From a virus (taxonomy: Duplodnaviria > Heunggongvirae > Uroviricota > Caudoviricetes): DNA of 30,163 nt. How positions within the stretch are numbered: the stretch's first letter is position 1; the number at the start of each line of letters is the position of its first letter. Shown in pieces: positions 16,230 to 30,066 of this stretch. The position numbers and the translations under genes were made by a program. Below the pieces are notes generated by a model. The model saw only the letters and a list, made by a program, of their open reading frames with translations, was not told the DNA's origin and did no database searches. The stretch lies in IMG/VR virus record IMGVR_UViG_2526164632_000040; one strand, given 5' to 3'.

Positions 16230-16259
16230 GTAAGCGGCTCGCCAGAACCGTATTGATAT

Positions 16260-17831
16260 TTACTGAGAGGTCAGATCAACTTTCCAGGGCAACAGATCGC
16301 GTACCCGGTTTGCCGGCCAATCCTGGATATGCTCAATGACGTAACGCAGCCATTTTTCTGGTTCCACATTGTTCAGACGGCATGTGCCGATCAGCGAGTA
16401 CAACACCGCCGCATGTTCGCCACCGCTGTCGGAACCCGCGAACAGCCAGTTTTTCCGGCCTACGGCCACTCCCCGTAAGGCGTTCTCTGCGATGTTGTTG
16501 TCGATTTCCACCCAGCCATTACTGCAGTACACGTTCAGGCCATCCCACTGTTTCAGCAGGTATGCGAACGCTTTTGCCGTATCCGAGTGACGCGACAGTG
16601 TTTTCATCTGAGTCTGTATCCAGTCATACAGTGACTGCATCAGTGGCGCAGCTCTGGCTTTTCTTGCCGCCAGACGCTGTTCTGCTGTACATCCCCGGAC
16701 TTCTGCCTCTATGGCATACAGTTCACCGATACGCTGCAGGGCTTCCGTGGTGATGTCGGTGGGCACTCTTGCATGCACATCGTGGATTTTTCTCCGGGCA
16801 TGAGCCATACACGCGGCTTCCGTTATTCTGCCGGATTCGTATAACACCCGGTAACCACCGTAAGCATCGGCCTGAAGCACACCGCTGTAACCGGCCAGAT
16901 GATTTTGTGGATGGATACCTTTCCGGTCCGGTGAGTACGCGAACCAGACCGCCGGGGGCATTTCCGAACCGGCGTTACGGTCATCACGGACGTAGACCCA
17001 CAGCCGGGCGGTCCGGGTTTTACCGCTGCCCGGCTCCTGGACCGGGACGGGGATATCATCAGCATGGACTTTACCGGGCATCAGCACATACTGGCGCAGG
17101 ACGTCATACAGCGGCTCCAGCAGTTCAGCAACGGCACCTGTCCAGCGCCCCAGCGTGGCGCGGCTCAGCTCCACGCCCTGGCGACGGTATATTTCTGACT
17201 GGCGGTATAACGGCAGATGGTCTGCATATTTCCCGGTAACAACATGGGCCAGAAGCCCCGCTCCGGCATAACTGCGTGCAATGGGTTTTGAAGGTACTGT
17301 TGCCTGCACGATATGGTCGCACCGACAACAGGCCAGTTTCGGACGTTGTGTTTCGATAACCTTAAAGGCGCTGCTGATAAGCTCCAGTTGCTCTGACACA
17401 TCACACCCCAGAGGACTGAGGTCACCACCACAGGCCGGGCAGCATTCCTCTTCCGGCCGGATGACCCGGGTTTCACGGGGAAGTGAGGCCGGTAACGGTT
17501 TACGGGCTGAAGACTGGCGCAGGGCGGATGGCAGTACCGGGTCATATTGCTCACCCAGCGTTTCCGCCATTTCTTCCTGAAGTGCGCTGATTCGCTCCTG
17601 TGCTTCCTGTATCTGCCGTTCGGTTTTAGCGCGAAGTTTTTCTGAGCTTTTACCGAACTGCATGCGCTGCAGTTTCGCAACCAGCGCCTTCAGCCGGTTG
17701 ATTTCGGAAGCATAAGCCGCCACCCGCTGTGAGAGCAGGCGGTTGTATTTCGCCATCTGGCGGATGGTGTCCTGTTGCGTCTGCAACAGTGCCCGCAGGC
17801 GGGCATTCTCATGAGCAAGTGAGGTGTCCAT
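16260..17831 (-). CDS. tnpC: IS66-family transposase TnpC
   Basis: 523 aa with N-terminal coiled coil, CxxC...CxxC zinc-finger motif (CCPACGG...CCRCDH) and a large catalytic region. Confidence 0.8.
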
Positions 17832-17850
17832 ATCCTCACTTTACAACGGG

Positions 17851-18198
17851 TTATATGCGGATGCCAGCGCGTTCCGTTCGTTTCGGGTGCTTCCAGTCGA
17901 TGCCTTCGAGAAGCATGGACAACTGAGCCGGAGTAAGGTGAACCTTTCCATCGCGGGTGACCGGCCAGACGAAGCGGCCCCGCTCCAGGCGTTTGGTGAA
18001 GAGGCACAGTCCGTCACTGTCAGCCCACAACACTTTTATCTGGTCACCCCGGCGTCCGCGGAAGATGAACAGGTGTCCGGAGAACGGGTCATCCTTCAGG
18101 ACGTTCTGAACTTTTGAGGCCAGGCCGTTAAAGCCATTTCGCATATCGGTGATACCGGCAACCAGCCAGATACGCGAACCGGCAGGGAGAGATATCAT
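17851..18198 (-). CDS. tnpB: IS66-family accessory protein TnpB (Orf2)
   Basis: 115 aa with the motif LVAGITDMRNGFNGLA characteristic of IS66 Orf2 as recalled. Confidence 0.8.
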   Translation of the reverse strand: MISLPAGSRIWLVAGITDMRNGFNGLASKVQNVLKDDPFSGHLFIFRGRRGDQIKVLWADSDGLCLFTKRLERGRFVWPVTRDGKVHLTPAQLSMLLEGIDWKHPKRTERAGIRI

Positions 18199-18848
18199 CA
18201 GTGGCTGCTCCCTTTCATTTCGCGGATAAGTGTCTGTAATAACGCCGGTGTCAGTTCACCTTTCAGCCTGAGAGTTCCGGCCGGCAGAACCAGCTCGCAG
18301 CACAGACTGTCTGGCAGTGTATTTATCTGTTCAGGTATCTGCACTGGTGCCGGGATTTTATTATCCGGCTCCGGAGTTAACGTCACGGGAAGTAGCGATG
18401 TTTCATGTTCGCCGGGCGGTTGCAGGCCACCGTTACGCCAGAGATGCCGCCAGTTAAAGAGCAGGTTATCGTTAATTCCATTCTCTCGAGCTATTTGTGC
18501 GACACAGGCACCGGGTAAAAGAGTTTGCTGAACCAGTCTCCATTTAAACTCCGGTGAAAATCGGTTCCGGCGGGGTTTCTCTGCTTTCACAGGCTGAGTC
18601 ACGGTCGGGGCTGAAGGGTATCGCCCCGGGAAAAGAGCCCGGGCCAGTTGCCCGCAGGAATATTCACCGGAAAGAGGCCAGTCAGTGAATACCTGGTGAA
18701 ATCGCCTCACCAGAGAAAAAATGGCGGTTTTGCTGACACCAGTCTGCGCAGAAATGCGCGGGTACGACAGTGACTCGTCAAATCTCAGCTGTAGCACACG
18801 CAGGATCAATTCTGGATTATCTGCCAGTACCGCTTTTCGTGCATTCAT
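18198..18848 (-). CDS. tnpA: IS66-family accessory protein TnpA (Orf1), HTH-containing
   Basis: 216 aa. First ORF of the IS; its stop overlaps the tnpB start. Confidence 0.7.
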   Translation of the reverse strand: MNARKAVLADNPELILRVLQLRFDESLSYPRISAQTGVSKTAIFSLVRRFHQVFTDWPLSGEYSCGQLARALFPGRYPSAPTVTQPVKAEKPRRNRFSPEFKWRLVQQTLLPGACVAQIARENGINDNLLFNWRHLWRNGGLQPPGEHETSLLPVTLTPEPDNKIPAPVQIPEQINTLPDSLCCELVLPAGTLRLKGELTPALLQTLIREMKGSSH

Positions 18849-28964: not shown

Positions 28965-28983
28965 ATCCTCACTTTACAACGGG

Positions 28984-29331
28984 TTATATGCGGATGCCAG
29001 CGCGTTCCGTTCGTTTCGGGTGCTTCCAGTCGATGCCTTCGAGAAGCATGGACAACTGAGCCGGAGTAAGGTGAACCTTTCCATCGCGGGTGACCGGCCA
29101 GACGAAGCGGCCCCGCTCCAGGCGTTTGGTGAAGAGGCACAGTCCGTCACTGTCAGCCCACAGCACTTTTATCTGGTCACCCCGGCGTCCGCGGAAGATG
29201 AACAGATGCCCGGAGAACGGGTCATCCTTCAGGACGTTCTGAACTTTTGAGGCCAGGCCGTTAAAGCCATTTCGCATATCGGTGATACCGGCAACCAGCC
29301 AGATACGCGAACCGGCAGGGAGAGATATCAT
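28984..29331 (-). CDS. tnpB: IS66-family accessory protein TnpB (Orf2)
   Basis: Protein identical to copy 1 TnpB despite three nucleotide differences. Confidence 0.8.
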   Translation of the reverse strand: MISLPAGSRIWLVAGITDMRNGFNGLASKVQNVLKDDPFSGHLFIFRGRRGDQIKVLWADSDGLCLFTKRLERGRFVWPVTRDGKVHLTPAQLSMLLEGIDWKHPKRTERAGIRI

Positions 29332-29981
29332 CAGTGGCTGCTCCCTTTCATTTCGCGGATAAGTGTCTGTAATAACGCCGGTGTCAGTTCACCTTTCAGC
29401 CTGAGAGTTCCGGCCGGCAGAACCAGCTCGCAGCACAGACTGTCTGGCAGTGTATTTATCTGTTCAGGTATCTGCACTGGTGCCGGGATTTTATTATCCG
29501 GCTCCGGAGTTAACGTCACGGGAAGTAGCGATGTTTCATGTTCGCCGGGCGGTTGCAGGCCACCGTTACGCCAGAGATGCCGCCAGTTAAAGAGCAGGTT
29601 ATCGTTAATTCCATTCTCTCGAGCTATTTGTGCGACACAGGCACCGGGTAAAAGAGTTTGCTGAACCAGTCTCCATTTAAACTCCGGTGAAAATCGGTTC
29701 CGGCGGGGTTTCTCTGCTTTCACAGGCTGAGTCACGGTCGGGGCTGAAGGGTATCGCCCCGGGAAAAGAGCCCGGGCCAGTTGCCCGCAGGAATATTCAC
29801 CGGAAAGAGGCCAGTCAGTGAATACCTGGTGAAATCGCCTCACCAGAGAAAAAATGGCGGTTTTGCTGACACCAGTCTGCGCAGAAATGCGCGGGTACGA
29901 CAGTGACTCGTCAAATCTCAGCTGTAGCACACGCAGGATCAATTCTGGATTATCTGCCAGTACCGCTTTTCGTGCATTCAT
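29331..29981 (-). CDS. tnpA: IS66-family accessory protein TnpA (Orf1)
   Basis: Translation identical to copy 1 TnpA (216 aa). Confidence 0.7.
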   Translation of the reverse strand: MNARKAVLADNPELILRVLQLRFDESLSYPRISAQTGVSKTAIFSLVRRFHQVFTDWPLSGEYSCGQLARALFPGRYPSAPTVTQPVKAEKPRRNRFSPEFKWRLVQQTLLPGACVAQIARENGINDNLLFNWRHLWRNGGLQPPGEHETSLLPVTLTPEPDNKIPAPVQIPEQINTLPDSLCCELVLPAGTLRLKGELTPALLQTLIREMKGSSH

Positions 29982-30066
29982 CTTAAATGTCCTTTTACTG
30001 CGAAAATGGACATTAGTATCGGAAACAGGAAAGGGAGGCGAAAGACGGTTTAAATGATGCGCTTAC

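Follow-up and report, generated by a model that had tools for sequence, protein, structure and literature searches.

Two separate IS679 insertions in the tape-measure and dinI-like genes of an SfV-like prophage of Escherichia coli

We analysed a 30,163-nucleotide stretch of Caudoviricetes DNA (IMG/VR record IMGVR_UViG_2526164632_000040; hereafter, the window), which is a portion of an SfV-like Escherichia coli prophage and carries two copies of the insertion sequence (IS) IS679. Copy 1 interrupts the tape-measure gene, and copy 2 interrupts a dinI-like gene. Taken as a whole, the results are best explained by two separate, simple insertions of IS679 into a prophage integrated at dusA, a reading to which we give a probability of about 93%. 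We propose that an active, multicopy IS679 transposed twice, independently, into this prophage in one E. coli sub-lineage, and that each transposition event generated its own 8-bp target duplication. The window corresponds to contig AIHC01000087.1 of assembly GCA_000250255.2 (hereafter, the source assembly), with no mismatches over the overlapping 20 kb (window position p is contig position p+1). The coordinates of the features are summarized in Table 1.

When the window was compared directly with itself after a shift of 11,133 bp, which is the distance from the start of copy 1 to the start of copy 2, two 2704-bp elements in the same orientation emerged, with the identity between them cut off sharply at both element ends. 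Each copy is enclosed by a perfect 8-bp direct repeat, GGAAAACC around copy 1 and TACTGATG around copy 2. The termini of the element are imperfect inverted repeats which both begin with GTAAGCG and match at 17 of the first 25 positions; in the IS66 family, the terminal inverted repeats are imperfect, measure about 20-30 bp and start with this motif. The initial annotation, made from the sequence of the window, had described two IS66 copies of this length, orientation and spacing with differing target duplications, and the exact comparison agrees with it on each of these points.

Both copies have intact open reading frames (ORFs) in the order tnpA-tnpB-tnpC, with the accessory genes tnpA and tnpB upstream of tnpC and, in copy 1, base 18198 common to tnpA and tnpB. 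According to Pfam, tnpA encodes a 216-amino-acid helix-turn-helix protein (PF01527/HTH_Tnp_1, E = 8e-17), tnpB a 115-amino-acid IS66 Orf2/TnpB protein (PF05717/TnpB_IS66, E = 3e-40) and tnpC a 523-amino-acid DDE transposase (PF03050/DDE_Tnp_IS66, E = 1e-103), and TnpC also has the IS66 zinc-finger, leucine-zipper and C-terminal modules (PF13005, PF13007 and PF13817, above gathering score). These domains bear out the earlier assignment to the IS66 family, which can be refined to IS679. The best matches in complete E. coli genomes are annotated by the Prokaryotic Genome Annotation Pipeline (PGAP) as 'IS66-like element IS679 family transposase', and these PGAP-named copies, on which the identification was based instead of the ISfinder reference sequence, differ from copy 1 at three bases only. 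In fact, copy 2 is a base-for-base match to at least five IS679 copies in FDAARGOS_1059 and O111:H2 strain 12A, the two nearest complete genomes. Perfect 8-bp duplications were found at five of the six other IS679 copies examined. IS679 was reportedly first described on plasmid pB171 of enteropathogenic E. coli strain B171, and is said to be 2704 bp long, to carry tnpA, tnpB and tnpC and to make 8-bp duplications. Since all family features that could be tested were present, the element is IS679 itself and not a new relative.

When both ISs and one copy of each duplication were removed from the window, the remaining 24,739 bp were 99.976% identical from end to end to FDAARGOS_1059, from which they differ by three substitutions and three single-base indels. 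In FDAARGOS_1059 the two target sites are exactly empty, the octamer occurring once at each, and the empty-site sequences were likewise present in strain 12A and in the enterotoxigenic E. coli (ETEC) strain H10407. Counting these genomes, both sites are empty, with a single target octamer each, in ten other assemblies of the prophage, including three whose accessions are adjacent to that of the source (AIHA01, AIHB01 and AIHD01). An intact tape measure of 633 amino acids and an intact DinI of 82 amino acids are encoded in AIHA01, AIHB01 and AIHD01, in PNTX01, UGFE01 and UARW01, and on the metagenome scaffold ERZ28565535. Of 5,426 complete E. coli genomes, 213 carry site 1 and 637 carry site 2 in uninterrupted form, and none of the 5,426 has an occupied junction at either site. 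Occupied junctions of both sites were also absent from the viral collection and from the GTDB representative genomes, and the occupied left junction, the only one searched there, was absent from the metagenome collection. Among the complete relatives labelled with a serotype, the nearest is O111:H2. Since AIHA01, AIHB01 and AIHD01 lack the insertions, these are recent, which implies that IS679 is active in this lineage.

The two copies are 99.89% identical and differ at 18030 (A/G), 18073 (G/A) and 18076 (T/C). These are synonymous changes in tnpB, and TnpA, TnpB and TnpC are the same in both copies. Over 18005-18105, the copy-1 allele is the common IS66-family tnpB allele, matched at 100% by about 2,000 records. 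The IS679 master sequence and an ISCro1-like element of the same family differ at IS positions 1801, 1844 and 1847 exactly as copy 1 does; these are consecutive variant sites between the two elements, and copy 1 keeps the IS679 allele at the neighbouring variant sites, IS positions 1733 and 1889. Because ISCro1 alleles at the three sites are flanked by IS679 alleles, the tract is templated and is 47-155 bp long. Gene conversion with a sibling element as the donor probably gave rise to it, a consensus artefact being the less likely alternative. Copy 1 would have gained the tract after its insertion, or would have been copied from a donor already bearing it. ISEc22 was also considered as the donor and was rejected, at 68-75% identity. 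A comparable tract is present in an IS679 copy in a lambdoid prophage near hokD of FDAARGOS_1059 (NZ_CP066032.1; 2597-5300 of locus L007), which has 22 differences, all between IS positions 881 and 1234 and 18 of them matching ISCro1-like alleles, forming a mosaic or conversion tract inside tnpC. IS66-family siblings thus exchange tracts in this lineage. Since copy 2 is the master sequence present at many loci, parentage cannot be assigned between the copies, and because a templated three-nucleotide tract separates them, they appear not to be a simple parent-daughter pair.

It had been suggested in the initial annotation that two copies in one prophage reflect local hopping, in which one copy arose from the other at short range, or a regional hotspot of IS679 in this prophage segment. 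For a genome of about 5.2 Mb, our own arithmetic gives a chance of about 0.4-0.8% that two new insertions would lie 11 kb apart, a nominal figure that presumes just two new insertions, spread uniformly. IS66-family elements also occur in other prophage tail modules: a lambdoid tail region of FDAARGOS_1059 has ISEc22 and IS679 a few kb apart, and in strain STEC388 a related prophage has an ISCro1-like element at its tail-fibre gene. However, the sites are not reused (site 1 is occupied in 0 of the 213 and site 2 in 0 of the 637 complete genomes bearing them), and seven IS679 target octamers (GGAAAACC, TACTGATG, TATTGGTG, TGCCGTAC, CGATAACC, CTCCCTGG and ACTTTTTC) have no consensus. Copy 2 matches at least five copies elsewhere in the relatives, any of which is a possible donor, and copy 1 differs from it. 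Moreover, each chromosome of the nearest relatives has about 10-17 places that match IS679-like sequence, and five of the six other copies examined are in accessory DNA (prophages, islands or a plasmid). Tolerated targets are thus few and concentrated in prophages and islands, so that two insertions in one prophage are more to be expected by chance. We therefore regard hopping or a hotspot as improbable, and the suggestion was not supported, although IS679 may be regionally biased toward prophage tail modules. The genome-wide IS count that had been proposed as a check was obtained for the nearest relatives. In the lambdoid tail region mentioned above (loci L006 and L010; NZ_CP066032.1:3344615-3356500), ISEc22 lies between two tail-gene pseudogene fragments, one of them annotated as host specificity protein J, and IS679 lies between sodC and a tail assembly gene.

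Duplication or misplacement of the IS in the draft contig would be another explanation, as the contig spans two 2.7-kb repeats and has project-specific homopolymer miscounts. It is very improbable, since perfect matched 8-bp duplications at four junctions are not producible by an assembler, the two copies differ in sequence, and the independent short-read assembly GCA_002467565.1 has both outer junctions, and its one contig that overlaps the window outside the IS has a single difference from it in 11,139 bases. In that assembly the outer junctions are on separate contigs (NMLS01000069.1 and NMLS01000036.1), with junction ORFs of 373 amino acids (tape-measure N-terminal fragment and IS) and 37 amino acids (dinI N-terminal fragment and IS). 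Each contig ends 127 nt inside the IS, as is expected of a short-read assembly. The collapsed or duplicated assembly that the first description had named as fatal to its claim is thus contradicted by the second assembly and by the differences between the copies. A composite transposon, in which a 13.8-kb IS679-baseplate-IS679 unit came as one piece, has a negligible probability and is refuted by the empty sites. Although the gene block is bracketed by two same-orientation copies of one IS, the outer flanks are unlike (GGAAAACC on the left and TACTGATG on the right, with a matched pair at each IS), and the 8.4 kb in between belongs to the prophage itself, being colinear and identical with this segment in the ten assemblies whose prophage is uninterrupted. 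Two separate insertions, as already proposed from the sequence of the window, account for the duplication private to each copy, the different outer octamers and the empty sites.

Several points nevertheless weigh against the reading of two separate insertions and what we derive from it. The inner junctions (18933/18934 and 27362/27363) are seen in the source assembly alone, and this assembly has homopolymer miscounts specific to its project. Its base-level accuracy is imperfect, and the three-nucleotide tract could be a consensus artefact. The loss of phage function and the polarity discussed below are only inferred, and the recombinant is predicted, not demonstrated.

Compared with FDAARGOS_1059, A/T homopolymers are one base shorter at window positions 1942, 20099 and 25933, each within a coding sequence of that genome (a small hypothetical gene, the phrog_5586 gene and the tail fibre, respectively); the phrog_5586 and tail-fibre genes are visibly split in the window. 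At the two sites examined, run length tracks the sequencing project (the A-run at 25933 has seven bases in all four AIH* assemblies and eight in six others, and that at 20099 has six in the source only), so that the differences are probably sequencing miscounts and not real frameshifts. Note that the length called for the small gene following the tape measure varies among assemblies (106, 162 or 173 amino acids), with the 106-amino-acid product in 39 blocks of the exact-product index used below, and the A-run of this gene may vary genuinely as well as by miscount. Two further substitutions relative to FDAARGOS_1059, 3 bp apart at window positions 66 and 69, are near where the source contig begins and fall within a DUF968 gene which also occurs in another prophage of FDAARGOS_1059; they may be a contig-end or paralogue-mixing effect.

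Table 1. Positions of the IS679 copies, their target duplications and the neighbouring prophage genes in the window
Feature	Position	Strand	Remarks
Tape-measure gene, N-terminal fragment	15218-16229	+	337 codons and 1 nt; PHROG tape-measure families, E = 1e-96
Target-site duplication 1, left	16222-16229		GGAAAACC; single copy at the empty site in FDAARGOS_1059 and two other loci
IS679 copy 1, 2704 bp	16230-18933	-	tnpC 16260-17831, tnpB 17851-18198, tnpA 18198-18848, all minus
Three-nucleotide synonymous tract, ISCro1-like alleles, in tnpB of copy 1	18030-18076	-	
Target-site duplication 1, right	18934-18941		GGAAAACC
Tape-measure gene, C-terminal fragment, 890 nt	18942-19831	+	PHROG, E = 2e-67; colinear with FDAARGOS_1059
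Conserved hypothetical phage gene, phrog_5586	19896-20383	+	162 amino acids in relatives; split here by A7-to-A6 at 20099
DNA circularisation protein (PGAP name), first of Mu-type baseplate block	20440-21813	+	Pfam DNA_circ_N, E = 1e-33
Mu-type baseplate genes	21810-25482	+	Pfam matches all above gathering score
Baseplate hub gp44/GpP-like	21810-22889	+	
Baseplate gp45/V	22889-23437	+	
Baseplate gp46	23437-23862	+	
Baseplate_J/gp47	23849-24907	+	
Baseplate gp48	24898-25482	+	
Tail-fibre gene	25486-26585	+	PHROG tail-fibre; split here into ORFs of 156 and 197 amino acids by A8-to-A7 at 25933
Small phage ORF, 68 amino acids, phrog_14370	26585-26791	+	
dinI-like gene, C-terminal fragment	27203-27362	-	Translation
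Target-site duplication 2, left	27355-27362		TACTGATG; single copy at empty sites
IS679 copy 2, 2704 bp	27363-30066	-	tnpC 27393-28964, tnpB 28984-29331, tnpA 29331-29981
dinI-like gene, N-terminal fragment	30067-30163	-	The final three bases of the window form the start codon
Target-site duplication 2, right	30067-30074		TACTGATG

The prophage has HK97-type head genes and a Mu-type contractile tail, and in the relatives it ends in the dinI-like gene and an integrase gene adjoining dusA. The head-to-sheath region upstream of copy 1, of which 10.8 kb was compared, is 97.7-98.1% identical to SfV and SfIV across 67-84% of that length, and the full 8.4 kb between the ISs was matched in only two of the 5,426 complete E. 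coli genomes. Copy 1 is inserted after nucleotide 1012 of the tape-measure gene, in codon 338 of 633 (the intact gene of the relatives is 1902 bp), and the frame of the N-terminal fragment stays open inside the IS as far as a stop at 16339, which yields the 373-amino-acid chimeric ORF. Copy 2 splits the minus-strand, 82-codon dinI-like gene (phrog_189, E = 6e-31 for the intact protein of the relatives) at about codon 30. Given the minus-strand orientation of this gene, the N-terminal fragment is found to the right of copy 2, and it runs on into the IS to give the chimeric ORF of 37 amino acids. Just past the right end of the window, TACTGTGTTTGTATACAGTA and then AACTGTATGGATAAACAGT lie directly upstream of the dinI-like start codon (FDAARGOS_1059 locus L001, about 28530-28575), and each fits the LexA-box pattern, CTGT-N8-ACAG. 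Because of these two LexA-box-like motifs, the interrupted gene was probably SOS-regulated before the insertion.

PGAP marks the tail fibre of the relatives as a mere 297-nt 'StfP, missing C-terminus' pseudogene. The tail-fibre ORF of the relatives is intact, with 366 amino acids and a glycine-rich C-terminal part (26554-27654 of locus L001 in FDAARGOS_1059), and the pseudogene call looks like an annotation shortfall. We considered from this call that the prophage might already have been defective before the ISs arrived, and rejected this view because of the intact ORF; the prophage looks complete before the insertions.

As for the consequences, truncation of the tape measure by copy 1 should abolish tail assembly, and copy 1, being in the late operon, would probably be polar on the downstream baseplate and tail-fibre genes, although read-through has been reported for an IS in another prophage (PMC7430833). 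RecA-dependent recombination between the 2.7-kb direct repeats would delete 11,133 bp (2704 + 8429), taking with it one IS, the C-terminal half of the tape-measure gene, all baseplate genes, the tail fibre and the C-terminal half of the dinI-like gene. The crossover product would consist of the tape-measure N-terminal fragment, one IS and the dinI N-terminal fragment, that is, a lone IS with non-matching octamers on its flanks. The geometry of an 11.1-kb deletion fusing these two fragments, as put forward in the initial annotation, is sound.

A search for such a deletion derivative, also proposed there, yielded a candidate in GCA_002467565.1, in which the two outer junctions are present and six inner-junction products are not on record. 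None of the five products of the tape-measure C-terminal fragment (259, 235, 224, 217 and 215 amino acids) and not the 43-amino-acid product of the dinI C-terminal fragment, the sole product of that ORF, is on record for this assembly in the exact-product index, which is not exhaustive, as the 373-amino-acid junction ORF is encoded on the source contig and yet is not on record there. In the same index, the lineage-restricted 68-amino-acid protein is in 59 blocks and the GP46 allele in 147, of which the 24 blocks with the longest contigs were read. We tentatively suggest, at somewhat less than even odds, that GCA_002467565.1 is the predicted recombinant between the two IS679 copies without the baseplate and tail-fibre module, the source strain representing the state before the deletion; this is a lead, and the recombinant is unproven.

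Similar traces were seen elsewhere. An IS679 copy of FDAARGOS_1059 (3001-5704 of locus L003; NZ_CP066032.1:707196-709899), which lies in an island next to an Ag43/Cah adhesin gene, is flanked by AGATTAAC and GATTATTC and lacks a target-site duplication, a footprint expected from recombination between two IS copies or from an adjacent deletion. In STEC388 (NZ_CP041425.1; 10108-13040 of locus L047), the ISCro1-like element is between a truncated SfV-like tail-fibre gene and the lysis region of a Mu-like prophage, an arrangement suggestive of an IS-associated event that fused the two prophages or made a deletion between them.

Neither the element nor the process is new, and the case is one of ordinary prophage decay: in one E. 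coli sub-lineage, two recent insertions of IS679 would have inactivated an SfV-like prophage that was apparently complete and have primed it for an 11-kb deletion, a textbook decay step. The significance is mainly in annotation, with no new mechanistic question raised. The occupied junctions, each absent from all the complete genomes, serve as a strain marker, and the tract in copy 1 is a reminder that short sequence tracts are swapped among IS66-family siblings. If GCA_002467565.1 is the recombinant, it and the source strain would make a natural before-and-after pair.

The elements in the window share with IS679 the 2704-bp length, the tnpA-tnpB-tnpC order, the imperfect GTAAGCG ends and the 8-bp duplication, and differ solely in their insertion sites and in the three-nucleotide ISCro1-like tract of copy 1. 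ISCro1-like elements of the IS66 family are about 96% identical to IS679, with 91 divergent sites over 2286 bp; they are the source of the tract alleles of copy 1 and of most of the tract in the hokD-proximal copy of FDAARGOS_1059, whereas both copies in the window have the IS679 backbone. The prophage resembles Shigella phages SfV and SfIV in its HK97-type head and Mu-type contractile tail, with Mu-type baseplate genes assigned here by Pfam, and differs from them in its integration next to dusA and its lineage-specific tail-fibre region. In prophages of E. coli O157, insertions of IS629 and ISEc8 and a 47.7-kb prophage deletion between 822-bp direct repeats have been described (PMC7430833). 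Multicopy ISs in prophage genes, and homologous recombination between direct repeats that deletes prophage DNA, are common to those prophages and the present one, whereas the IS and the prophage are different and the recombinant here is a predicted one.

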